A stretch of DNA of 11,868 bases from a virus (Duplodnaviria; Heunggongvirae; Uroviricota; Caudoviricetes): positions 1 through 11,868 of IMG/VR virus record IMGVR_UViG_2778261165_000018; one strand, 5' to 3'. A program made the translations under genes and the position numbers. Below, in pieces: positions 1 through 11,868 of this stretch; position 1 is the stretch's first letter; each line of letters begins with the position of its first letter. The notes beneath the pieces were generated by a model. It was given only the letters and a program-made list of their open reading frames with translations. It searched no databases and was not told the DNA's origin.

Positions 1-342
1 ATGATGAAAAAAAGTATTCTGGCGTTTCTGTTACTCACCAGTTCTGCAGCGGCGCTGGCGGCACCGCAGGTGATTACCGTCAGCCGTTTTGAAGTGGGTA
101 AAGACAAATGGGCGTTTAATCGCGAAGAGGTGATGCTGACTTGCCGACCGGGTAATGCTTTGTATGTCATCAACCCAAGTACCCTCGTGCAGTATCCTTT
201 AAACGATATCGCACAAAAGGAAGTTGCCAGTGGGAAGACTAAAGCCCAGCCGATTTCGGTGATTCAGATTGATGATCCTAACAATCCCGGCGAAAAAATG
301 AGTCTGGCACCGTTTATAGAACGAGCTGAAAAACTCTGTTAA
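1..342 (+). CDS. yebY: Host DUF2511-family secreted protein (YebY-like), 113 aa with N-terminal signal peptide
   Basis: ATG at 1, TAA at 340-342. N-terminus [22 protein letters not shown] is a typical Sec signal peptide with an AXA cleavage motif. Sequence matches my recollection of E. coli YebY; not verified by search. Confidence 0.75.
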
Positions 343-370
343 TTACCTAAATAGCCTTTTGATTTCCAAT

Positions 371-412
371 AAAAAAACCGCCTCAGTTCTTTCACCAGAA
401 CGGGCGGTTTTT
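371..412. terminator. Intrinsic terminator downstream of yebY, bidirectional in form
   Basis: A7 run (371-377), GC-rich hairpin CCGCC...GGCGG (378-407) with inner stem GTTCT/AGAAC, then T5 (408-412). A-run before and T-run after allow termination in both directions. Confidence 0.7.
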
Positions 413-486
413 AACATTTAAGCTGATGACTACCGCGCTTTTTATTGACCATTTTGCACGCAAACTGGAAAACCTGGCGTCGTCAT

Positions 487-496
487 CTATTCTTAA
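487..496 (+). promoter_or_regulatory. Sigma-S type -10 element (CTATTCTTAA) for the downstream small RNA
   Basis: CTATTCTTAA is a 9/10 match to the RpoS-type extended -10 (CTATACTTAA) and includes the -13 C. Hexamer TATTCT at 488-493 puts the predicted start near 500. Confidence 0.45.
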
Positions 497-499
497 AGG

Positions 500-603
500 G
501 CAAGGCAACTAAGCCTGCATTAATGCCAACTTTTAGCGCACGGCTCTCTCCCAAGAGCCATTTCCCTGGACCGAATACAGGAATCGTATTCGGTCTTTTT
601 TTA
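500..603 (+). ncRNA. sdsR: Candidate SdsR (RyeB) RpoS-dependent small RNA, about 104 nt
   Basis: Predicted start about 500 (GCAAGGC...). Internal palindrome GCATTAATGC (about 518-527), hairpin GGCTCT/AGAGCC (542-559), and terminal hairpin GACCGAATAC/GTATTCGGTC (569-595) followed by T7 (596-602). No ORF with an RBS. I recall sdsR/ryeA lying next to yebY in E. coli and Salmonella. Confidence 0.55.
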
Positions 604-686
604 ATTGTATTTAAAATCAATCAGTTGCAAACGTCTTCCCGAAATTCCCCGAAATTTACTCGAATTTCTGTATTCCGGTCTTTTTT
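586..686. other. Candidate prophage attL region: two core-like 17-mers, IHF consensus site and tandem 10-bp repeats
   Basis: GTATTCGGTCTTTTTTT (586-602) recurs as GTATTCCGGTCTTTTTT (670-686). IHF consensus WATCAANNNNTTR matched at 615-627 (AATCAATCAGTTG). Three 10-bp-phased repeats CCCGAAATTC / CCCGAAATTT / ACTCGAATTT at 638-667. Integrase stop lies 47 bp further in, at 734. Confidence 0.4.
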
Positions 687-733
687 GGTTATATCACAAC
701 CAAAACACATTTAACAATCCATTTACGTTAAAA

Positions 734-1810
734 TCAGAGCAGTAAGTACGTTTTTTCTCGCTCATCAAGATACATTTTTGTTGTCTTCTCCGATGTGTGA
801 CCAAGTAGGCGCTGGGCAAATTCTTCTCCACATGTTTCTTTGTACAATCGTCCAGCCAGACTTCTGATCTCGTGAAAAGTTGGTGGGTTTTCACTGAACT
901 GGATACCTGTTAATTTTCTGGCTGCGACAAATTTTTTTGTCAGGCCATCCGGGTGAATGCTGCCGTCAGGGCTGTTTTTTCTAATCCCGGCACTGATTAG
1001 ATAATCTCCCCGGCTTACCAGGCGGCACCGTTCAACTACTGTACCAAGCCGTAGACCAGCGACAGGAAGGCTGAGTGACAGGGGGATAGCAATCATCATT
1101 CCTGTCTTAATTTGCCTGATGTGGAGACGATCATCATAAATATCACTGAACCGCATATTCGTTATGTCTTCGCGACGTTGTCCTGTTACAAGGGCTAAAT
1201 CCATAGCTAATGGGAACCATGCCGGCAGTTGATCTGCTGCCTCCCTGATGCAGTTGTATGTCTTTAGTTTCAGTCGTTCTCTTGTAACTACTATTTTCGG
1301 TGCTCTTGTTGGCGTTACTGGATTTTGAGATATACGTCCTTCAACAATGGCCTCGCGAAACATATCAGACAACACAGAACGCATTGATCCTGCCATTGTG
1401 TTTTTCCCTCCTTCAATCCACAAATCAAGAAACTCGGCAATATGGCGAGTTGTTATTTCTGTCAGTAAAATCCCTCCCAATTTTTCTTTTATTGTCTCCA
1501 GTTGATTTACCCGAATTTTATAAGTATTTCTGGACACTTTTCTCCTTATAAGAATCGTTTTGTAACGTTCAATCCAGTCTGCCATAGTAAATGAGTCGAA
1601 CCCTTTAAGCTTTTCAATTAAGGCAGCAGGAGAGTAGTTTTTGTATATATAATGATTTGCTTCAATTGCCTGCGCTACTGCATCTCTTCTTGAAATTTTA
1701 CCTAGTGTAAATTCTTCTTTCGTCAGAGGGTTGCGCCAGTAATATGCTTTGTCCCTCCTTCGATATGTTAAGTTTTTAGGCAAATTGGGATCGTATTTTT
1801 TCCGCTGCAT
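734..1810 (-). CDS. int: Lambda-family tyrosine integrase, 358 aa
   Basis: Collinear with lambda Int as recalled: N-terminal arm-binding region ([15 protein letters not shown]), catalytic-region motifs ([40 protein letters not shown]). RBS GGAGAAG 8 nt upstream of ATG at 1810. Confidence 0.9.
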
Positions 1811-2057
1811 GTTTTAACTTCTCCAGTAACGGACTGTCTCTCCCTTGTCGCCCATTAGGCTGATGGTGTGTTATATCGGTATCAACCTTATTTGGGTTGA
1901 TATAGAAAGCCTCCGGAACCACTCTGTAACTCCTCCCGTGTAGTTCAGGTGCAGGATAAATGTTTCCATTCCTTGCCCATCGTCTCAGCGTTGATATTGA
2001 TGGTGGGTTATCCGGATATCTGAGTTTTCCCCACGTTTTGAGTGTCACAAGATTCAT
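1776..2057 (-). CDS. xis: Excisionase (lambda Xis-like)
   Basis: Motif TLRRWARNGNIYPAPELHGRSYRV resembles lambda Xis (ETVRRWVRECRIFPPPVKDGREYLF). 3' end overlaps the int start by 35 nt as in lambda. Start chosen at the ATG at 2057 (RBS AAGAGG 7 nt upstream); the ATG at 2063 is too close to the RBS. Confidence 0.7.
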   Translation of the reverse strand: MNLVTLKTWGKLRYPDNPPSISTLRRWARNGNIYPAPELHGRSYRVVPEAFYINPNKVDTDITHHQPNGRQGRDSPLLEKLKHAAEKIRSQFA

Positions 2058-2163
2058 TGCCATACCTCTTACGATATGACCGCCAGTAAATATACAGAAT
2101 ACTGGCGGGTGTGGTTGATTTTTAATAATCAGCTATGAAGTTCTAATTTGTATATAATGCAAC

Positions 2164-2352
2164 TCACGAGGACAGAAGCTTCTCGCAATTAAAATTTATC
2201 AGCTTTACTTTCTGCTCTCTGGAAACGCCTGCTTCTTTTTTCCCTGAGAGCATTTTTTCGCATTCTGATTTCGTTAATTTAGATTTTGAATATCTTGTCC
2301 AGTTAGTAGGAGTGCCACCTTCTTTTTCAATAGTGGCAGTTATTTTATACAT
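2164..2352 (-). CDS. ydaC: Small prophage protein, YdaC-like, 62 aa
   Basis: ORF MYKITATIEKEGGTPTNWTRY... with RBS GGAGGTG directly upstream of the ATG at 2352. Overlaps the ralR stop by 8 nt. Position between xis and ralR matches Rac as I recall it. Confidence 0.6.
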   Translation of the reverse strand: MYKITATIEKEGGTPTNWTRYSKSKLTKSECEKMLSGKKEAGVSREQKVKLINFNCEKLLSS

Positions 2353-2539
2353 GAACACCTCCATTATTATTTCCAGTAGTTCGTTTATTCCATCTTTCGA
2401 GTGCTTCTTTTTCACTTCCACCATAGCCAGTTCGGGATTCGCATCCGTTGCATTTTGCCCGGTAATATCCTGAAATTGCTTTCACCGTAACAGATGGACA
2501 ACCACAAAACGGACATGGTTTAACATCGTCATATCTCAT
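2345..2539 (-). CDS. ralR: Restriction alleviation protein RalR/Lar (zinc-ribbon), 64 aa
   Basis: MRYDDVKPCPFCGCPSVTV...AKCNGCESRTGYG has a CxxC...CxxC zinc ribbon and matches my recollection of K-12 RalR. In-frame upstream ATGs at 2551 and 2578 would give 68 or 77 aa. Confidence 0.8.
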   Translation of the reverse strand: MRYDDVKPCPFCGCPSVTVKAISGYYRAKCNGCESRTGYGGSEKEALERWNKRTTGNNNGGVHV

Positions 2540-2595
2540 AATTTTTGTCATAAAAACTGTCTCACGTTGGCGGTGCATTACACCGCCAGGCTGAA

Positions 2596-3405
2596 TTATT
2601 CTTCTGAATTATCGATTACACTGTATTCCCCGGTTAATACAGAGGAGTCTGCCGGATCGATTGTCAGTGGTTCCTTTTCATCCATTGATACTGCACGCTG
2701 GATTTCAATTGAGACTGGCAGGTATTTAAACAGGCGACGAATAGCCGTTTTTTTTGCCATTTCTTCCCAGTGAGTTACCCATGGCCCGTTATTACCAGCC
2801 TTACTCTGGCTGCGCACCAGTTCAATCTGTTTGCGCGTCATAACTTCAAACTGAGTCCCTCCGTCTTTCAGTCTTGCGACAGCATAGACGTGGGTCACTG
2901 GTGCATCTTCGTTTTCTCCCGGGCGGTGTATTAACTTTTCATCAAGGCCAAATTCAAAACTAAACTCGTCACCTTCACGGACAACACGGGCTGACAGGCT
3001 GGCGATTTGACCAGAACGGCGAGCCAGATCAATCATGCCGCGATAACCAATGATTAGCTGAACGTTCTTTTTACCGCTCTTTTCGTTTTTATTACCAAAA
3101 GGCAGTAAATATGCGTGGCCGAGGGCGCTACCTGGCTCAAGGCCGAGCTGTGAACACTGAACGATCGCACTGACAAAACTCATGGTGTCACAGTTTCCTA
3201 GCGCCGGAACCTTACGAATTTCTGTGGTGGCGATACGTATCATTCGTTCAGCCGTCATATGGCGTGGGAGAGCTGCTGCCAGTTGCTCTTTCATTGATGG
3301 CTGATTAATAAAGCTGATCACGTCGTTATTTTTTACTGCTGCTGGTGCACGGTTTCCCTGGGTTTTTTGCAGATCGGCTTTTGCGATAGGTGGTTGCTTA
3401 GTCAT
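2596..3405 (-). CDS. recT: RecT single-strand annealing recombinase, 269 aa
   Basis: [27 protein letters not shown]... matches recalled Rac RecT over its whole length. RBS GGAG 7 nt upstream. Start overlaps the recE stop (3398-3405), indicating translational coupling. Confidence 0.9.
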
Positions 3406-6073
3406 TTGCATACTCCTTAGCCCAGCGGGGCAGTGATAACGTTTTAATAGCTGGCCATTCATCGGTATTCAGGCAGTCAGCCAGGGTCCTCAGATTGCGG
3501 TGATATTCCTGCTGGCCTGCCAGTTTTGCTTCTTCGCCCATCATGAAAATCTCAACCGGGTAACGTCCGCATTCAACAGTTGTGCTGGCAACCAGAAAAA
3601 CGAAAGTTGGCAGCACGCCAAACTGTGCTTCATAACCGTCACTGTAGAATGCATCCTGAACGTGATAGCGGTAGTCGTAATAAGCCGTTTTGAATCGTTG
3701 AATATCCGCTGTGGTTTTCACGTCCATGATCCAGTGAAATTCAGGAATAATTTTGTCCGGACGGCACCGACACAAAATTCCTGTTTCAGGATCTTCCCAG
3801 TAAATTGATGATTCAGCGTGTCCGGCGCTTTCAACAAGCCATTGACCCAGCGGCAAAGCCATAACGCTCTGATACATGAGTTCAATTTTCCGGCCTTCTT
3901 CGGCAGTGATAACCGTTTTTCCTGTGCTTGCGCATTCCATCAGAAACGCTTTCTCCTCTTCTTTTCCGGCGGTTGTACGGCGGTTAAATTCAGGTGCCAC
4001 GATAAAGCGGTTACTGAATTCTTCCGGTTCAAGTACACGGCAGTGGAAAGCGGTTCCTAAATCGAGCGTTTTTGTCTTTGTGGTGTCCACTGGGGCATTT
4101 TTACGCCACAAATACAGAGCCGGAGTATCAGCAATGTCGTCGAGCTGAGACTTACTGACACCGGGACCCGCGTGGTAATTCTCATTCGAAATTCCGTAAT
4201 AAATACCAGGCTCTATGTCTCCTGCGATTACGGGATCTGCGACTTCGCCAGTTTCATCACTGCAATCGCGATGCGGATCGCTGCCAGCATTCTCATTGTG
4301 CGGATGTTCAGGGCCTTCCATTTCCTCCGGATCTTTTTCCTGAGATTCATCCAGATTTTCTTCATTAAAGGTTTCCTGATACGTGGTGTCGCCCATCACC
4401 GCGCCACAATCAGGGCAGTTGCCGCCACCGCTCTGACCGCAGGCGGCACAGACTTTTTCCGGTTCCTGTTGCGCTACTGGTTCAGATTGTTTCGTTTCTG
4501 GCTCGTTTTTCTGTGCATTTGGGCTGTTTTGTTCCGCTTTCTGGTTGTTTTGTTCCGATTCGGGCTGGTTCTGGTTCACAGAATCTCGGGTTTCAATTCC
4601 CTTAACCCATTTCGGATCATTCGGGTCGCTAATCCCTTCAACAAATTCTCCGCGAGAGGCAGCCAGCAATTTGTCGGCATCGACAGGATTTTTGGGCGGA
4701 ATGGTTTTCCGGGCTTCATGGAGTTCTGCCCGCAGTTTCTGATATTTCGCATCAACAGAATTTACCTGTGACTGAGCATCCAGCGGCTGCGTGTCCTGAT
4801 GATGTTCAGTTGCATCCGGTTCCACTGTTTCAGCCGTTGCCTGTTTATCTGCCATTGCGCAAGATGGTTGCGGTTTTTCTTCACCATCGTGTTTTCCTTC
4901 TTCTGTTACACGCTGCGGCATCGGGGCAGAGGAACGACCGCAGGCAATATCCACGATTTCCGGATCAGGGTTGGCATGATCGGTTTCAATCAGCACCTTG
5001 TTCAGATATTCAGTGACATGCGCAGGGATAACCTCGATCCCAATTGGTGCTTCTTTTACGGACGCAACCACGATGGCGCGGGAATAATCCAGCCCGCCAG
5101 GCATGGTGATGAATTTGTCGCGGAAAACAGAAAAGGGCGGTTTATTTTCAGCGATAATTTCCTCGACACGTTTAGCGTGTGCCGGATGAAGGTTATAAAT
5201 GTCCACGTCCATTGAACGAGCCAGTACGCCAGTGGCTACGTCGCGCGCCAGTGACGTCAGATCGTGAACGAAACCTTCGCCGCGATCGGTGAGGTTCCCG
5301 CCGCCAGCATTAGCGCCGGAAGCCGTGCGCGTGATGCGTGAAACACGATTTCCTTTCATCCACTCTTTTGTCAGCAGACCGCGATCGGTGTAGTCTGCGT
5401 CCAGGTATGCTTCGAAAAAAGCAGTCATCAGCCCCAGGCTTGAATTGCCTGGATTAGGGAACACTCTGTCAGTATCACGCACCAGTTTGTGGAGATCGCG
5501 AATTTCCAGCGGGTCGAGCAGGCTGGTTTTGTGGGAAACAGCCAGGGCAGTAACAGCTGGTAGTTCTTCAGCCCGTGCAATGTGTAATGCCTGGAGTTCG
5601 TCGCGTGAAACGTGCGTTACCGGTTTTTCGCTGCCGTGTTGAGCAAGCCAGCGAATGGGCAGCTCCTGACCGGAAATCGGGAGTAGCATATTCTCCTCAA
5701 TCTCCGTCATGTCTTCGCCATTAACATTGGTATTGTCAGTGCTGGCTGGCTTGTCCTGCGCAGAGGATGAGGGCGCGATAAATACCATTGTGATGCCATC
5801 TTCCCCGCCTTTTTCGTAACGGTTGCAGAATTCCGTATCAAATACGCCTTCTGGTGGAAGGTCATCAACAACGGGCAAATTGACGCAAACAGGTTTTTTA
5901 AAGTCATCTTCATCGTAGCCAGCATCGTCAATCGCAACAGCACCACGGGAGATGGCAATGGATAATTTTTTCGCTTCAGCCCAGTAGAAACCGCCTTTAA
6001 TACCGAGACGTTTTCTTACTTTGTCATTTTTTGCTTCGTAATACAGTGGGTAAACTTGTTTATCGGTGCTCAT
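3398..6073 (-). CDS. recE: RecE exonuclease VIII, 891 aa
   Basis: C-terminal two-thirds (from [17 protein letters not shown] to the end ...[11 protein letters not shown]) matches recalled K-12 RecE, including the nuclease domain. The N-terminal roughly 110 residues differ from what I recall. ATG at 6073 with RBS GAGGT. Confidence 0.9.
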
Positions 6074-6143
6074 TGTTTTTTAACCTCAACTCAGATTAAA
6101 ATTAATGCGAGTGATGAATAAATGTCCCAGGTTCTTCACTCAG

Positions 6144-6173
6144 GCCTGCACAGTGTGCAGGCTTTCTTTTTTT
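6144..6173 (+). terminator. Plus-strand intrinsic terminator between racC stop and recE start
   Basis: Stem GCCTGCA (6144-6150), loop CAGTG, stem TGCAGGC (6156-6162), then TTTCTTTTTTT (6163-6173). It has terminator form only on the plus strand, opposite to the flanking genes. Confidence 0.5.
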
Positions 6174-6448
6174 CAGATTTCACCTTTTAATTTCATTGCA
6201 ATCAGAGTTGCCAGAAATTCGGCTTTTTTTTCTGCGGGCAGATTCTTTCCTATGTGCACCAGACACATTTTTTTAACACCATCGTTAAGTGTTTTAACGT
6301 TGCCTGATGGACCGTCGATATCAACCACAGTGAATGGGGTTTCTTTATTTTCTGTCTTAATCACGTAGCCAATACGCTTTCCTTCCAGGGTAACTTCGTG
6401 AACAATGTCATCAGTAGTAACAACAGTGGCTTCATAACTGGTAATCAT
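6173..6448 (-). CDS. racC: RacC, 91 aa prophage protein
   Basis: MITSYEATVVTTDDIVHEV... matches recalled K-12 RacC. RBS AAGGAGAAAAAC precedes the ATG at 6448. The longer track ORF starting at 6496 lacks an RBS. Confidence 0.8.
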   Translation of the reverse strand: MITSYEATVVTTDDIVHEVTLEGKRIGYVIKTENKETPFTVVDIDGPSGNVKTLNDGVKKMCLVHIGKNLPAEKKAEFLATLIAMKLKGEI

Positions 6449-6522
6449 GTTTTTCTCCTTAATTAAGGTTGAGCGAATCCCTGCCATTGCTGGCATAAAT
6501 TCAGTTTCGGATAGTCAGTTAA

Positions 6523-6693
6523 TTAAAGTTCGTGTGCCATCTGGTCTTTTTCGGCACAGATTTCACTACAATATTTTTTCATTTCCGTCGTTGGTATAAC
6601 TCCACGCATGAAATGAAGTGGTCTTGTAATGATTTTGCTTTCTTCAATTTCTTTATTGCAAAGGTGATAAGCACATTTTATTTTCTTAGTCAT
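6523..6693 (-). CDS. ydaE: YdaE-like small zinc-binding protein, 56 aa (absent from the ORF track)
   Basis: My translation of the minus strand: [56 protein letters not shown], with paired cysteines C-x4-C and C-x3-C. Its ATG overlaps the kilR stop (TAATG at 6691-6695). Confidence 0.7.
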   Translation of the reverse strand: MTKKIKCAYHLCNKEIEESKIITRPLHFMRGVIPTTEMKKYCSEICAEKDQMAHEL

Positions 6694-6914
6694 TACCATG
6701 ACTCCGCCTTTACAGGTAAACCATCACGACCGAGGAAGACTCTAATCATGCAGTCAGAAATGCATGTTTTTGTAGTCAGGCTACGAATATAAAGTTTTCG
6801 CTTTTTAATATTGTTTGCCGAGGCGATATATGTCCGACCTTCATGAAGAACATAATCGCCAGGGGTCACACACTGACGTGGTATTTCATCAGTTCCGAAG
6901 TGATGAGCAATCAT
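6693..6914 (-). CDS. kilR: KilR cell-division inhibitor, 73 aa
   Basis: [35 protein letters not shown]... matches recalled K-12 KilR. RBS GGAGAT 6 nt upstream of the ATG at 6914. Confidence 0.8.
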
Positions 6915-7419
6915 AATTATCTCCATTTTTACAAATGAATTTTGTCGATGCGGTGCCTGGTGCCTCCAGGTGACGTTAACCAGTTAACAATTAACGCCGG
7001 ATCGTGATATCACCTAAACAGATACGGGTTGTTTTTAACTGTTCCGCGTGCGCTGAGCCGCATTCACCGCATCACAAAATTCACTTTAAAAAGGACGGAC
7101 ATCAGCCAGCAATGAAACTGATGCCGCCAAAAGGTAATCAACATGGGTTGTTGCAGCGGGGTTGTCACTCAAGCGTATGGTCAACCTGACAACCCGGTGC
7201 TCCACAGGGGGAGGGAGAATAGCACCCCTGCCATACTTACCGCCGCGCCATTTCGCGGATTGCCACAACCGGAAGCGCACGGTCGAAGAAATTTAAAGAC
7301 AAGCCTTCTAAGGGAAAAACACCTCCTCCGTGCGCTTTCGTGTTGTGCGCCTGTCTTTTTACCACTTCAGGCTCGGTGGTATACTGGAGTTCTCACACAA
7401 CCAGTAATAAGGTATTCCG

Positions 7420-7614
7420 ATGGATAATAAAGACAAAGCCTGGCTACTTGCTTTAGCTTTCAGCATCAGATCGCAGCGAGAAACAACTCATCAAGAATTT
7501 TTCTCGGAAATCGAGAATGCTGAGAATGAGTTTTTGTCACTACTCAATGAACGTGATGCTAAAAAAAGCGCCGATTCACTTAAGGCTTGGGCGAAACTAG
7601 GCTCTTCAAAATAA
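7420..7614 (+). CDS. Hypothetical 64 aa protein in the position K-12 Rac gives to sieB
   Basis: ATG at 7420 with RBS AAGGT 6 nt upstream. Candidate promoter TTTTAC (7357-7362), 17 nt spacer, TATACT (7380-7385). No hydrophobic segment, so unlike a SieB membrane protein. Confidence 0.4.
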   Translation: MDNKDKAWLLALAFSIRSQRETTHQEFFSEIENAENEFLSLLNERDAKKSADSLKAWAKLGSSK

Positions 7615-7798
7615 TTGCTTCTGTAGCGGCATGAACAACTGTTTTTGCCGCCTCTTCAACTTCCTTGTCTGGACGACCAGCCTTTACTTTTTCTGCAATG
7701 ACCTCCAGCACAGTTGGAAGAACCTTGCTAATAAGCATGGCTGCCACATCTTTGCTGCACAATTGACCGTTAATAACAACCAGATCTTCACCAACCAT
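7580..7798 (-). CDS. Hypothetical 72 aa protein (possibly the intact form of the short ydaF/ydaG genes of K-12 Rac)
   Basis: ATG at 7798 with strong RBS AAGGGG 7 nt upstream. The track ORF extends to a TTG at 7855 without an RBS. Its 3' end overlaps the convergent 64 aa gene by 35 nt. Confidence 0.5.
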   Translation of the reverse strand: MVGEDLVVINGQLCSKDVAAMLISKVLPTVLEVIAEKVKAGRPDKEVEEAAKTVVHAATEAIILKSLVSPKP

Positions 7799-7977
7799 CT
7801 TTTTTCCCCTTAACGCCGGGTGGCGGAACGTTTTATCTACTGCGCTTTGTATCAATCAACAACTGCCGTCATGTTCGTATGCCTCAGGCTGGCTACTTAG
7901 CCCTGTTCAGTGGCTGGATAACTCGAGGTATTGTCCTGCCGTTCTCTGGTGGGGCGTTGTTTGGATATGACAAATGC

Positions 7978-7990
7978 TCACATATCGTGA
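7978..7990 (-). promoter_or_regulatory. Isolated operator-like site TCACGATATGTGA (read on the minus strand)
   Basis: Exact match to the TCACG-N3-TGTGA motif found three times in the racR/ydaS intergenic region. A perfect TTGACA lies on the minus strand at 8003-7998. Confidence 0.4.
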
Positions 7991-8043
7991 GTGATTTGTC
8001 AACTCAATATGTGAGCAATGTTGTTTTTGGATTTTTGATGGAC

Positions 8044-8076
8044 AAAAAAAGCCCTCGCTAATAGCGAGAGCTTTTT
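8044..8076. terminator. Bidirectional intrinsic terminator downstream of the repressor gene
   Basis: A7 (8044-8050), hairpin GCCCTCGCT/AGCGAGAGC (8051-8071), then TTTTT (8072-8076). Has terminator form in both orientations. Confidence 0.6.
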
Positions 8077-8102
8077 GATTGGAATCGAGGGAGATTAAAG
8101 GT

Positions 8103-8492
8103 TTAGGAGGATTTTTTCTGTTGCCTGCTTCTTAGATATTTTTCCACATACTCATCAAGCTCTTGAAGACGGATTTCGAACAGATCAATCATGCGTGCTT
8201 GTTCTGATCCCGGGAGCTGATTAAACAGCTCTAGCATTTTTTTCTGGTTATCATTTAACCATGAGTACGTGTTTTCCTGTTCACCGAACATTAATTCTGC
8301 GGGGGAAATGCCTAGTACTTGGCCGAGGATGATCGCATCCTCAGCCCCCACACTCCTGGTGCCAGCTTCGTAGTTAGCAATACGAGAAGAACCTGACCAA
8401 CCACATAGTTTTGCCAGGTTTCCCATACTTAATCCTCGATTTAGGCGAGTGGCTTTTAGGCGCTCGCCTATTTGTTCTGCAATCGTTTTCAT
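8103..8492 (-). CDS. racR: Prophage repressor, XRE/Cro-C1 family HTH (RacR-like), 129 aa from the ATG
   Basis: HTH signature LSMGNLAKLCGWSGSSRIANYEAG. Divergent from the cro-like ydaS across an operator-bearing intergenic region. Start taken at MKTIAEQ (8492); the track ORF extends upstream from a TTG. Confidence 0.75.
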   Translation of the reverse strand: MKTIAEQIGERLKATRLNRGLSMGNLAKLCGWSGSSRIANYEAGTRSVGAEDAIILGQVLGISPAELMFGEQENTYSWLNDNQKKMLELFNQLPGSEQARMIDLFEIRLQELDEYVEKYLRSRQQKKSS

Positions 8493-8505
8493 AGTTCCGA
8501 TTTTA

Positions 8506-8567
8506 TCACGATGTGTGAAATTGGCGGTACTCACGTATCTGTAGTTGATCTCACTCACGAAATGTGA
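8506..8567. promoter_or_regulatory. Three-site operator array (OR-like) between racR and ydaS
   Basis: TCACGATGTGTGA (8506-8518), TCACGTATCTGTA (8531-8543), TCACGAAATGTGA (8555-8567). Near-palindromic 13-mers spaced 25 and 24 bp centre to centre. Confidence 0.55.
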
Positions 8568-8572
8568 ATAAT
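8545..8572 (+). promoter_or_regulatory. Candidate rightward promoter for ydaS (pR-like)
   Basis: -35 TTGATC (8545-8550), 16 nt spacer, -10 AATAAT (8567-8572). Operator site 3 overlaps the spacer and -10. Confidence 0.35.
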
Positions 8573-8586
8573 AGAAACAGGAGGTA

Positions 8587-8832
8587 ATGATGAACAAAAT
8601 TTCAACATATCGAAAACAGCTTGGGCTGTCTCAAAGACAACTTGCTGTTCAGTTAGGGTGGATACAAAGCCGACTGGCAAATTACGAAGCAAATTTTCGT
8701 ACCCCTGGGCTAGAGGAGTGCAGAAAAATTGTTTCTACCCTTAATCGGCTTGGTGCTCATTGTGGACTTGACGATGTATTCCCCCCAGACGGTAAGCATA
8801 GCGAAAACAGCATAGGAGCGGTTGATTCATGA
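8587..8832 (+). CDS. ydaS: Cro-like HTH regulator YdaS
   Basis: HTH region LSQRQLAVQLGWIQSRLANYE. RBS GAGG fits the second ATG at 8590 better. Stop overlaps the ydaT start (ATGA at 8829-8832). Confidence 0.8.
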   Translation: MMNKISTYRKQLGLSQRQLAVQLGWIQSRLANYEANFRTPGLEECRKIVSTLNRLGAHCGLDDVFPPDGKHSENSIGAVDS

Positions 8833-9251
8833 AAATCAGGCATGAGCACATCGAATCAGTGTTGTTAGCCCTGGCAGCCGAAAAAGGGCAGGCGTGGGTC
8901 GCTAACGCAATTACTGAAGAATATCTGCGCCAGGGGGGCGGCGAATTGCCCCTTGTACCAGGCAAGGACTGGAACAATCAGCAGAATATCTATCACCGTT
9001 GGTTGAAAGGTGAAACGAAAGCGCAAAGGGAAAAAATTCAGAAACTCATCCCTGCGGTTCTGGCAATTCTTCCGCGCGAGCTGCGTCACCGACTCTGCAT
9101 CTTCGATACCCTGGAACGCCGTGCATTACTGGCGGCGCAGGAAGCGTTGAGTACGGCAATTGATGCGCATGATGATGCAGTACAGGCCGTTTACCGGAAA
9201 GCACATTTCAGCGGTGGTGGGTCGCCCGGCGATTCTGTCGTAGTGCATTGA
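8829..9251 (+). CDS. ydaT: YdaT-like protein (reported toxic partner of YdaS in Rac), 140 aa
   Basis: MKIRHEHIESVLLALAAEKGQAWVANAITEEY... matches recalled K-12 YdaT in length and sequence. Translationally coupled to ydaS. Confidence 0.8.
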   Translation: MKIRHEHIESVLLALAAEKGQAWVANAITEEYLRQGGGELPLVPGKDWNNQQNIYHRWLKGETKAQREKIQKLIPAVLAILPRELRHRLCIFDTLERRALLAAQEALSTAIDAHDDAVQAVYRKAHFSGGGSPGDSVVVH

Positions 9252-9296
9252 TTGAAATTAATCGTGCCGGATTGTTTTGTTCGGTATCAGTTAAAT

Positions 9297-9714
9297 GTAA
9301 CGCTGCGAGCGTTACAAGGTGAAAACAAATGGCTTCAAACTGGATAAAGCTCGAGGTTATTACGCCGGATAAGCCGGAAATATTCAGGCTTGCTGAGATT
9401 CTGAATATTGATCCAGATGCCGCATTAGGGAAGGTTATTCGCTTCTGGGCATGGGCGGATCAACAAATGATAGACGGTAATGCAGATTGTAACGCTCGCG
9501 GCGTTACAAAAAGTGCAATAGATCGCATCACTTTTATGGCTGGTTTTGCTGATGCGTTAATTCAGGTTGGATGGCTGGTCGAAAATGACGTTGGGCTTTC
9601 TCTACCTAACTTTGAACGTCATAACGGAAAAAGCTCTAAAAAACGGGCGGTTACAAACGAGCGAGTTACAAAAATACGCGAACTGAAACGAAAAGGTAAC
9701 GCTGCCAGCGTTAC
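9297..9714. repeat. Iteron-like 19-bp palindromes GTAACGCT-N3-AGCGTTAC (three good copies and one degenerate)
   Basis: GTAACGCTGCGAGCGTTAC (9297-9315, just upstream of the ydaU-like start), GTAACGCTCGCGGCGTTAC (9489-9507), degenerate GTTACAAACGAGCGAGTTACA (9650-9670), GTAACGCTGCCAGCGTTAC (9696-9714). An acidic linker with (GAGGAA)3 and an AT-rich patch follow at 9736-9775. Confidence 0.5.
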
Positions 9715-10117
9715 ACAAACGGATCAAAAAGCGTTACCAGAGGAAGAGGAAGAGGAAGATATAAATACTGATCTCCCCCTAAATCCCCCTCGTCAAAAAC
9801 GAGCGTCTAAAAAATTCGAGCCGGAGGCTATTGAGCTGCCCGATTGGTTGCCGGAAACACTCTGGCATGAGTGGGTCCGGTTCAGACAGGCATTGCGAAA
9901 ACCGATTCGAACGGAGCAGGGCGCTAACGGGGCGATACGGGAACTGGAAAAATTCCGTCAGCAGGGTTTTACACCTGAGCAGGTGATTCGACACAGCATC
10001 GCCAATGAATACCAGGGCCTGTTCGCGCCGAAAGGTGTTCGGCCTGAGACGTTGCTCCGACAGGTTAACACCGTCTCGTTGCCGGACAGTGCGATCCCGC
10101 CAGGCTTCAGGGGGTAA
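9329..10117 (+). CDS. ydaU: Phage replication initiation protein (YdaU-like, lambda O analogue), 262 aa
   Basis: RBS AGGTGA 6 nt upstream of the ATG. Lies immediately upstream of the DnaC-like loader, contains the palindromic repeats and a central acidic linker (EEEEEED). Family assignment is from memory. Confidence 0.7.
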   Translation: MASNWIKLEVITPDKPEIFRLAEILNIDPDAALGKVIRFWAWADQQMIDGNADCNARGVTKSAIDRITFMAGFADALIQVGWLVENDVGLSLPNFERHNGKSSKKRAVTNERVTKIRELKRKGNAASVTQTDQKALPEEEEEEDINTDLPLNPPRQKRASKKFEPEAIELPDWLPETLWHEWVRFRQALRKPIRTEQGANGAIRELEKFRQQGFTPEQVIRHSIANEYQGLFAPKGVRPETLLRQVNTVSLPDSAIPPGFRG

Positions 10118-10123
10118 CGGACC

Positions 10124-10870
10124 ATGAAAAATATTGCGACAGGCGGCGTTCTGGAACGCATCCGCCGACTGACCCCGCCACATGTAACCGCCCCATTCAG
10201 AACGGTAGCGGAGTGGCGCGAGTGGCAACTTGCTGAAGGCCAGAAACGTAGCGAGGAGATCAACCGCCTGAATCGCCAGTTGCGGGTGGAAAAAATTCTG
10301 AATCGCTCAGGCATCCAGCCGTTGCACCGTAAATGCTCGTTTGCGAATTACCAGGTGCAGAACGACGGCCAGCGATACGCGTTAAGCCAGGCGAAATCCA
10401 TCACCGATGAACTGATGACCGGGTGTACAAATTTTGCGTTCAGCGGAAAACCTGGTACCGGGAAGAATCACTTAGCGGCAGCTATCGGGAATCGCCTGCT
10501 GAAAGACGGTCAGACAGTGATTGTGGTTACCGTGGCTGATGTTATGAGCGCCCTGCACGCCAGCTATGACGACGGGCAGTCAGGCGAAAAATTTTTGCGG
10601 GAGCTGTGCGAAGTGGATCTGCTGGTTCTTGATGAAATTGGCATTCAGCGCGAGACAAAAAACGAGCAGGTGGTGCTGCACCAGATTGTTGATCGCCGGA
10701 CAGCGTCGATGCGCAGCGTGGGGATGCTGACAAACCTGAACTATGAGGCCATGAAAACATTGCTCGGCGAGCGGATTATGGATCGCATGACCATGAACGG
10801 CGGGCGATGGGTGAATTTTAACTGGGAGAGCTGGCGTCCGAATGTCGTCCAGCCAGGAATTGCGAAGTGA
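10124..10870 (+). CDS. ydaV: DnaC-like replicative helicase loader (AAA+ ATPase, IstB-like), 248 aa
   Basis: Walker [14 protein letters not shown] and Walker [10 protein letters not shown]. Length and sequence match recalled K-12 YdaV. Confidence 0.9.
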
Positions 10871-10892
10871 TTTTTACCGGGAGGAAATTTTA

Positions 10893-11645
10893 ATGGAAAC
10901 TGTATTTGACGCACTGAAAGCAATGGGAAAAGCCACGTCGGTAGAACTGGCTGCGCGACTTGATATCAGTCGTGAAGAGGCTGTCAACGAGCTGTGGGAA
11001 CTCAAAAGAAATGGCGTTGTTGATAAAACTGGTCACACCTGGTCTCTGGCTGGCGAAGGTGAATCCCGGGTAACCGAAGAGCGGCCAGTAAAATCTGAAG
11101 CACAGGATATGCTGACCGGGGAGGTCGAACAAAAAGTTACCGCAGACATGATGATTGAGTTTATCGGTCAGGATGGGGCTAAAACGTGTGAGGAACTGGC
11201 GGGTAAGTTCGGTGTCAGTACTCGCAAGGTTGCTTCCACGCTGGCGGTGGTAACCGCAACGGGGCGGCTGGCACGCGTTAATCAGAACGGTAAATTTCGT
11301 TACTGCATGCCGGGCGATAATTTACCAGCAGAGCCGAAAGCCGCGCTGGTAACGGAAAGTGATGGTAAGGCCTTTCCTCAACCAGCAGGTGTTGCGTTAC
11401 CGGGACAGGAAGCTGCAACACAGGAAGATATTAAAACAGAAACTGTGGCAGACATTGTGCAGCCGCTTGAGAAGCGAGTGGATAATCTGGTTCTGCCATC
11501 GCTGCGACAGGCAAACCGCGAACTGCGTCGGGCGAAAAGTGATATCCGGAAATGGGAGCGAGTCTGTGTCGCGCTGCGGGAGCTGAATAAATATCGCGAT
11601 ATTGTCGCCCAGCTTTGCCAGGAGGCAACCAGTGAGCAAAATTAA
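10893..11645 (+). CDS. Hypothetical prophage protein with two winged-helix-like segments and a C-terminal helical region (YdaW-like), 250 aa
   Basis: Start chosen at the ATG at 10893 (RBS GGGAGG about 9 nt upstream) rather than the track start at 10842, which overlaps ydaV. Two helix-turn-helix-like stretches (around [26 protein letters not shown] and [21 protein letters not shown]). Confidence 0.6.
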
Positions 11646-11868
11646 CTATCAGGCACTACGTGAGATAGCAAAACAGGCAACACAGGGCGAATGGGTCGCG
11701 TTTATTTCGACGGGTACAGGTACGTATGCTGTGCATACGCCCGGTGATAAACGATGTGAAGATGTTATCAAATGGACCGGCTTTGATGGACTGAAAAACG
11801 CAGAGAACAACGCTCGTTATATTGCCGCATTCAACCCAAAGGTTGCACTGGAGCTACTTGGTGAAATT
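11632..11868 (+). CDS. Hypothetical prophage protein, 5' partial (runs off the window end)
   Basis: GTG at 11632 preceded by GGAGG (11621-11625) at 6 nt. Open frame to the window end ([28 protein letters not shown]...). Overlaps the upstream gene's stop by 14 nt. Confidence 0.5.

Follow-up and report, generated by a model that had tools for sequence, protein, structure and literature searches.

An untranslated stretch of roughly 490 bp lies just upstream of kil in the leftward operon of a Rac-like prophage, which raises the question of what such a region encodes. In this study, we analyzed the region within a window of 11,868 nucleotides, that is, the whole stretch of DNA under study (positions 1 to 11,868 of IMG/VR virus record IMGVR_UViG_2778261165_000018). 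A first-pass annotation had described the region as non-coding and strongly structured and had proposed a structured ncRNA, a processed leader of the leftward operon or a dense protein-binding region. On homology and synteny, the region proves to be a conserved cassette for non-coding RNA: a variant of the DicF/KilS locus that is not annotated, with predicted processing duplexes and a leader. DicF has been known since 1990 and KilS since 2021; the type of locus (dicF/dicB, KilS) is thus already known, and what is new is an unannotated mosaic allele.

Prophage context

In the RefSeq annotation of an identical E. coli genome, int, xis, ralR, recT, recE, ydaE and kil are located on the minus strand, and nothing is annotated between the kil start and a plus-strand hypothetical ORF at 7420. 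The following features define the surroundings of the region:

462-606: host sRNA pair SraC/RyeA and SdsR (SdsR/RyeB), found with Rfam, adjoining the integrase gene (734-1810)
2168-2346, plus strand: full-length RalA antitoxin sRNA (Rfam, 215.8 bits), opposite ralR as in K-12 Rac
6693-6914, minus strand: kil coding sequence (RefSeq of the identical genome; phrog_294 Kil, E = 8.5e-36)
6912-6924, minus strand: kil ribosome binding site GGAG (6924-6921) and ATG (6914-6912), from the RefSeq annotation of the identical genome
7420-7614, plus strand: 64-aa cargo ORF, hypothetical in RefSeq, full-length phrog_22868 match (E = 5e-47)
7580-7798, minus strand: small ORF, full-length phrog_23495 match

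The host sRNA pair beside the integrase gene indicates that the prophage is integrated there and not at the K-12 Rac site near ttcA. Since the annotated kil start is at 6914, the non-coding stretch reaches down to 6915 instead of 6927, the boundary given earlier. On the other side, the 64-aa cargo ORF occupies the position of sieB in K-12 Rac. This ORF and the minus-strand ORF at 7580-7798 are convergent and overlap by 35 bp, so that a leftward transcript would have to cross the entire plus-strand cargo gene in antisense on its way to the cassette. PADLOC gave no defence match for either of these flanking small ORFs. The 72-aa upstream ORF was also considered as YdfC, which was rejected because BLASTP gave no alignment. 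Further upstream, a candidate intrinsic terminator of the repressor gene was seen at 8075-8040 on the minus strand (GCTCTCGCTATTAGCGAGGGC followed by T7). By eye, a TTGACA (8002-7997, minus strand) was spotted between the palindromes CTCACATATTGAG and CTCACGATATGTGAG (CTCAC...GTGAG); together, these elements are likely the early-left promoter and its operators.

Coding status, folding and repeats

The first-pass annotation had found no credible protein in the region, and this was borne out: the five internal ORFs are intact in just 0-4 of 75-78 homologues, and Pfam gave no match for any of them. It had also held that the ORFs lack an RBS, which does not apply to ORF 7143-7427 with its upstream SD-like AAGG, but this ORF is not conserved either. 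The PHROG database returned partial matches of about 20 residues each to phrog_8854 and phrog_3651, at 7089-7280 (minus strand) and 7143-7424 (plus strand); both families probably include ORFs that were mis-called over the conserved non-coding cassette. A coding explanation was rejected in view of the missing Pfam matches, of PHROG hits limited to these two partial ones, and of ORFs that are not kept in homologues.

The strong structure claimed for the region was confirmed over 493 nt, with z = −4.6 for the minus strand and z = −4.2 for the plus strand against dinucleotide shuffles, none of 100 of which folded as well as the native sequence. The good folding of the plus strand would also suit a functional plus-strand RNA antisense to the leader, just as the neighboring position of sieB in K-12 Rac would suit a decayed gene, for example a sieB-like pseudogene. 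However, no reading frame is kept in the 75-78 homologues, Pfam is silent and the cassette is intact in viable phages, while the sole plus-strand promoter points away from the region and the wobble asymmetry described below favors the minus strand, which makes a decayed gene or a plus-strand RNA extremely improbable.

All of the repeats listed beforehand were found again at their stated positions. Three TTAAC copies (6976-6995) and CCGCG/CGCGG (7243-7258) were verified by direct reading of the sequence, and the GGGTTGTCA/TGACAACCC stem (7159-7195) by a repeat search. The same search extended the long-range repeat AAGCGCACGG/CCGTGCGCTT, described as 10 bp in length, to 7264-7282 and 7328-7347 and gave an additional inverted repeat (7146-7155 with 7261-7270). 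The 10-bp palindrome GTGATATCAC is present at 7004-7013 on direct reading, but it sits in a segment that is variable among homologues and is thus not a conserved feature. Also, GGTGCT/AGCACC exists at 7197-7226, but the conserved hairpin here is CAGGGG/CCCCUG at 7204-7231. The T-run at 7356-7360, regarded earlier as the end of the long-range repeat, belongs instead to the −35 region of a plus-strand promoter and is no terminator tail.

Homology and distribution

In a three-way alignment, the minus strand proved homologous to two loci, the Qin intergenic region ydfC-dicF-dicB and the KilS region of K-12 Rac; between the terminator T-run and the kil/dicB leader, stretches of the alignment are nearly invariant. 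The K-12 annotation places dicF between ydfC and dicB (Qin) and the ncRNA kilS (b4833) between kilR and sieB (Rac). Identity differs along the cassette: a junction module (7269-7150) has 90% identity to Qin but no counterpart in K-12 Rac, the leader is 83% identical to Rac and 88% to Qin, the terminator hairpin is about 77% identical to both, and the 18 nt directly 5′ of this hairpin match neither DicF nor KilS. By this comparison, the window allele is a mosaic composed of a Qin-type upstream part, a KilS-type terminator, a 5′ segment of its own and kil downstream.

Rfam was searched with relaxed thresholds (gathering scores: DicF 48, STnc100 47), and the minus-strand DicF and STnc100 matches are located at syntenic positions. 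In the K-12 controls, DicF scored 76.7 bits and the KilS region 39.1 bits against the DicF model; the K-12 dicB and kilR leaders gave STnc100 matches that were likewise sub-threshold.

By megablast, similar DNA was found in 4716 of 5426 complete E. coli genomes, at a median of two places per genome and often beside dicB. Matches were also obtained in 74 phage records; in phage Tritos, the match is annotated as 'DicF antisense sRNA'. The 63-nt sRNA segment occurs near full-length in 81-89 of the 5426 E. coli genomes, mostly from animal isolates, and is never annotated. An exact search of species-representative genomes with a 21-mer across the terminator-leader boundary, which says little on divergent relatives, hit Escherichia, Shigella and a few MAG contigs only. 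For a survey of modularity, IMG/VR loci were anchored on a 16-mer of the leader, which resulted in 104 unique loci. About 100 of these share terminator and leader and about 78 share 7350-7146, but only 17 run into kil.

Conserved helices and functional strand

Absence of conserved pairing among related prophages had been named beforehand as a refuting test. The helices are kept in the homologue alignments: in the predicted helices, 95% of cells are paired and double-sided changes exceed those in shuffles and slid controls, in an alignment dominated by close relatives, so that many pairs never vary. On the minus strand, the predicted helices contain 1641 G.U cells versus 153 A.C cells, and the alignment fold is −80.6 for the sense versus −64.0 for the antisense strand. 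Sense-better folding was seen in three of four modules; the sRNA module aligned too poorly to tell. The G.U excess together with sense-strand folding argues for selection on RNA and not on duplex DNA, and these two asymmetries identify the minus strand as the functional RNA.

These results also bear on a role at the DNA level, in which the region would mainly provide clustered binding sites for proteins, for example operators or nut-like elements. Such a role would fit the conserved promoter-like site at 7358-7385, whose spacer contains the inverted repeat ACCAC-N10-GTGGT (7361-7380). However, this signal is confined to the outer ~70 bp, and elsewhere one-sided changes keep pairing only as minus-strand G.U, as reflected in the counts above and in the better folding of the sense strand. 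The dense protein-binding region suggested earlier is therefore restricted to the outer ~70 bp with its plus-strand promoter module and does not extend to the remainder, and a DNA-level function of the region is very improbable.

Plus-strand promoter and cargo slot

The outer part of the region (7350-7419) carries the following plus-strand elements:

7358-7385, plus strand: sigma-70-like promoter TTTACC, 16-nt spacer, TG-extended TATACT (promoter scan)
7383-7405, plus strand: 5′-UTR hairpin ACTGG/CCAGT (direct reading), with SD AAGG and the ATG (7420) downstream

This promoter is predicted to drive the cargo ORF at 7420, outside the minus-strand RNA cassette. A module consisting of GGTGGTAT(A/C)CT, hairpin and SD precedes at least eight unrelated ORFs of 59-106 aa elsewhere (IMG/VR loci L007, L013, L022, L034, L065, L073, L081, L095, L127); the equivalent hairpins have entirely different sequences, with the stem kept. 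Antisense to the early-left operon, the plus-strand module looks like a cargo or moron slot at the sieB position.

The sRNA and its terminator

The proposal of a structured ncRNA proved correct, as the minus strand bears a DicF/KilS-family sRNA with an intrinsic terminator:

7088-7143, minus strand: DicF/KilS-family sRNA (Rfam DicF; terminator scan; alignment to K-12 DicF and KilS)

The DicF model (RF00039) matches 7143->7093 on the minus strand with 28.6 bits (E about 5e-4). Because this is below the Rfam DicF threshold, the allele was missed by standard annotation, and it is unannotated in all ~85 carrier genomes. The RNA begins with a single-stranded 5′ segment at about 7143-7129 (UGUUGAUUACCUUUU; predicted 5′ end 7143-7137), followed by the terminator hairpin at 7128-7094 (GGCGG-CAUCAG ... 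CUGAUG-U-CCGUC) and U5 at 7092-7088, as found by the terminator scan; for the 59-nt RNA, the MFE is −18.3 kcal/mol. Among 41 variants at homologous loci, several unrelated 5′ segments and several terminator hairpins occur, the GGCGG.AUCAGUUU core is kept, and the terminator stems covary with compensatory changes. Compared with the 98-nt KilS, only the 3′ ~49 nt align (38/49 identical), and similarity does not extend over the whole length. The sRNA is located 174 nt upstream of the kil ATG on the kilR-type strand; according to alignment and annotated contexts, its position in the operon is that of DicF, i.e., early-left, between small ORFs and the division-inhibitor gene, with homologous flanks.

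For DicF, targets in trans are proven; it pairs with the ftsZ translation start region, xylR, pykA and manX. Its xylR-pairing 5′ segment is not conserved in the window sRNA. RNAduplex was run against the full ftsZ region and against the start region, with DicF as control, and both runs were uninformative. For −25 to +12 of ftsZ, a duplex of −20.1 kcal/mol was obtained with 24% of shuffles as good, compared to 10% for genuine DicF; the test is powerless, since genuine DicF is not significant either (p about 0.10). As the 5′ segment is unlike that of DicF or KilS, the targets may differ.

The flanking duplexes H5 and H17 and the kil leader

A processed leader of the leftward operon had been proposed as well, and indeed the 3′ part of the region is the kil leader, and two ~20-bp duplexes flank the sRNA:

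7264-7347, minus strand: duplex H5, 5′ arm 7347->7328 and 3′ arm 7282->7264 (inverted repeats I1 and I5)
7087-7065 with 6955-6933, minus strand: duplex H17, 22 bp with one bulge
6933-7087, minus strand: kil leader (5′-UTR), enclosed by the long-range duplex H17

H5 comprises 19 bp with one bulge (7341), one conserved A.C mismatch and a variable 45-nt loop and is paired in 97.2% of cells across 79 homologues. H17 is paired in 97.5% of cells (79 sequences) and shows frequent G-C/G-U alternation; its 3′ arm stops about 10 nt before the kil SD. Each of the two thus provides about 20 bp of near-continuous dsRNA that is kept in homologues, and both are located at known RNase III cleavage positions of the homologous dicBF transcript. 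Inside H17, the leader contains two invariant hairpins, CGUUAA/UUAACG (6998-6972) and CCUGG/CCAGG (6970-6956), and the variable segment with the palindrome mentioned above. The STnc100 model (RF02076) matches 7104->6907 on the minus strand over model positions 1-206 with 40.5 bits (E about 3e-7), below its gathering score. An STnc100-like leader module (window 7071-6949) was also seen in the ban operon of P7 (L005, 2501-2616), directly upstream of terB/tciA and TciB-like division-inhibition genes.

For DicF, the 5′ end of the 53-nt form is made by RNase E and its 3′ end by the terminator, and the 3′ end of the 72-nt form by RNase III. In Qin, RNase III also makes the 5′ end of a 190-nt DicF species, which is lost without RNase III, and primer extension gave no internal promoter (PMC10448788). 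In the window, these published ends fall within H5, the sRNA and H17: for the 190-nt species, length arithmetic places the 5′ end at 7270-7275 in the 3′ arm of H5, and the 3′ end of the 72-nt form maps to 7074 in the 5′ arm of H17. H5 is therefore predicted to be an RNase III site creating the 5′ end of a ~190-nt sRNA precursor, and H17 a second RNase III site. In two IMG/VR deletion variants (L020 and L064), the 5′ arm of H5 is fused to junction hairpin a via a shared CGCGAAA, which removes the RNase III duplex.

Instead of being an RNase III/RNase E product of the operon transcript, the sRNA might be an independent gene with an internal minus-strand promoter. Global TSS data indicate that independent transcription of KilS is possible (Bar et al., PMC8175672), and a conserved GUUAAAUUU motif is located just upstream of the 3′ arm of H5. 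However, the promoter scan gave none on the minus strand in 6600-8700, formation of the 190-nt species in Qin needs RNase III, with primer extension again giving no internal promoter (PMC10448788), and KilS is annotated to begin within the 3′ arm of the H5 homologue, where an RNase III end would be expected. An independent sRNA gene is thus unlikely, and processing from the operon transcript is the preferred reading.

The four-way junction

Between H5 and the sRNA, a compact RNA module was found, which would form the body of the 190-nt precursor:

7150-7269, minus strand: four-way-junction 'middle module', ~120 nt, pseudoknotted
7269-7262 with 7157-7150, minus strand: junction closing helix GUUGUGGC/GCUGCAAC, 99.7% of cells paired
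7258-7243, minus strand: junction hairpin CCGCG
7231-7204, minus strand: junction hairpin b CAGGGG/CCCCUG
7195-7159, minus strand: junction hairpin GGGUUGUCA
7236-7231 with 7180-7175, minus strand: loop-linker pseudoknot GUAUGG with CCAUAC

Sequence variation supports these pairings. The closing helix shows U.G/U-A and G.U/G-C alternation, and in relatives hairpin b occurs as CGGGG/CCCCG, CUGGG/CCCAG or CGAGG/CCUCG. Hairpin c has an almost invariant loop and one pair that switches from U-A (48) to C-G (22); one pair of the pseudoknot is U-A in 56, U.G in 3 and C-G in 14 cases and never unpaired. RNAalifold on the whole region also suggested some long-range pairs (e.g., columns 304-312 with 711-721) and an alternative closing helix; these were set aside in favor of the curated closing helix, which has 99.7% of cells paired and terminates at the boundaries of the module. 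The outer six pairs of H5 are in competition with this closing helix, which could therefore form only after RNase III cleavage.

The ends of the junction coincide with those of its closing helix, and the junction, which is common to lambdoid and P1-like phages, is exchanged between phage types as one unit. Copies with neither H5 nor the leader are present in P1/P7 just past the ban promoter and in cdtI and Stx2c phages after cI; the P1 copy overlaps an annotated 'dicF-like region'. Copies just past early promoters were located in P1 (L130, 440-590), P7 (L005, 1092-1240) and cdtI (L006, 2501-2680), each with an sRNA-like spacer (YCAGUUU) and an intrinsic terminator of its own behind it. The cdtI copy is succeeded by a ~20-bp long-range duplex of another sequence, so that the architecture is conserved with the sequence replaced. 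All 74 unique contexts have a hairpin and a T-run of at least 5 within ~35-80 nt downstream of the junction, even where the sequences are unrelated; a naive terminator test gives 71, the other three being artefacts caused by a T-run in the loop. From one type to another (DicF, KilS, cdtI and P1), the spacers and terminators are entirely different in sequence. No Rfam family covers the junction, and the Rfam search gave no related riboswitch match.

The constant order of junction and terminator raises the possibility of a cis attenuator, in which the pseudoknotted junction and the terminator decide on read-through into kil and the sRNA is a by-product. Besides the order itself, kept in all 74 unique contexts despite unrelated sequences, this would be in line with a junction that is bounded by its closing helix, moves as a unit and sits right after early promoters in P1/P7 and cdtI, and with the covariation of the pseudoknot. 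However, no antiterminator pairing with the terminator arms was found, no ligand or factor is suggested, Rfam lacks a related riboswitch match, K-12 Rac without the junction still keeps the KilS terminator upstream of kilR, and DicF has proven trans targets. Attenuation in cis as the main function is thus quite unlikely. Similarly doubtful is the broader idea that the junction is an autonomous cis-acting RNA domain that controls terminator read-through and thereby gates toxic early genes (kil, dicB); it may act as a riboswitch-like sensor or a put-like RNA polymerase modifier, with DicF/KilS-type sRNAs as the terminated products. Among the phage BLAST matches listed, no similarity to HK022-type put RNA was found.

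Proposed processing of the operon transcript

Taken together, the cassette is likely a mosaic dicF/kilS allele in the centre of the early-left operon that is processed like dicBF of Qin. From the mapped DicF ends and the conserved helices, we infer the following course of events. Transcription probably starts near 7997-8002 at the candidate operator-flanked promoter, and the transcript would run leftward through the 72-aa ORF and the antisense of the plus-strand cargo ORF into the cassette. RNase III would then cut H5 at about 7270-7275, resulting in a ~190-nt precursor that consists of four-way junction and sRNA. The intrinsic terminator (7128-7094 plus U5) would set the 3′ end at 7088-7093, and RNase E would trim the precursor to a ~50-nt Hfq-type sRNA, which would act in trans on host mRNAs. 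Read-through of the terminator would yield the leader, in which H17 joins the post-terminator segment to the segment before the kil SD; here, a cut by RNase III would detach the kil message from the sRNA and leave it with a short 5′-UTR. By these steps, terminator and leader would limit the amount of the toxic FtsZ inhibitor Kil.

Comparison with known systems

The closest known system is DicF in Qin. Both loci have the same order of immunity region, small ORFs, long non-coding stretch and cell-division inhibitor, and they share the upstream duplex, the four-way junction (90% identical), the GGCGG.AUCAGUUU core of the sRNA, the intrinsic terminator, the long-range leader duplex and the leader hairpins. 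In contrast, the window sRNA has a single-stranded 5′ segment unrelated to DicF and a KilS-type terminator loop; the window has kil where Qin has dicB, and the flank carries the plus-strand cargo promoter, whereas in Qin it is the end of ydfC.

KilS (b4833) was confirmed by northern blot in K-12 (Bar et al. 2021, PMC8175672). It is likewise located upstream of kilR and has a homologous terminator hairpin (~77%) and a homologous leader up to the kil start (83%), but K-12 Rac is without the junction module of ~95-120 nt, and the 5′ half differs. With its start in the 3′ arm of H5, the 98-nt KilS thus matches a 190-nt DicF precursor from which the junction is missing. The lengths agree roughly, with 98 nt for KilS (L004, 6906-7003) and ~190 nt minus a ~95-nt junction for the DicF precursor (L003, 3746-3940). 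From these sequence relations, KilS appears to be a DicF paralogue, and both appear to be alleles of one modular cassette in which seeds, terminators and downstream toxins are shuffled. In the literature searched, KilS and DicF were not found named together.

STnc100/PasD is a prophage-associated sRNA family. The kil leader gives a full-length sub-threshold match to it, but in the window this segment is an mRNA leader inside a long duplex and not a demonstrated free-standing sRNA. P1/P7, cdtI and the Stx2c region share with the window the junction hairpins, the invariant loop and the pseudoknot, followed by the YCAGUUU spacer and an intrinsic terminator. They differ in having their own terminator, spacer and downstream genes (in P1: tRNAs, tciA/B, ban) and in the absence of H5, and the lambdoid-type closing helix does not keep its register in P1/P7. 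In the N leader of phage lambda, a duplex cut by RNase III is located between a promoter-proximal RNA element and the RBS of the first regulated gene. As an early-left operon leader, it may be regarded as working alike; no sequence similarity and no nut or N system was found in the window.

Significance of the cassette

With these results, the conspicuous gap without coding sequence in this Rac-like prophage is explained by an element of a known type, of which the window holds an allele that standard annotation missed. Also, the cassette contains a discrete pseudoknotted RNA domain that most E. coli genomes share with P1-like phages. Given that cell division, metabolism and EHEC virulence are all affected by DicF alleles, those with new 5′ segments could have different targets in the host.
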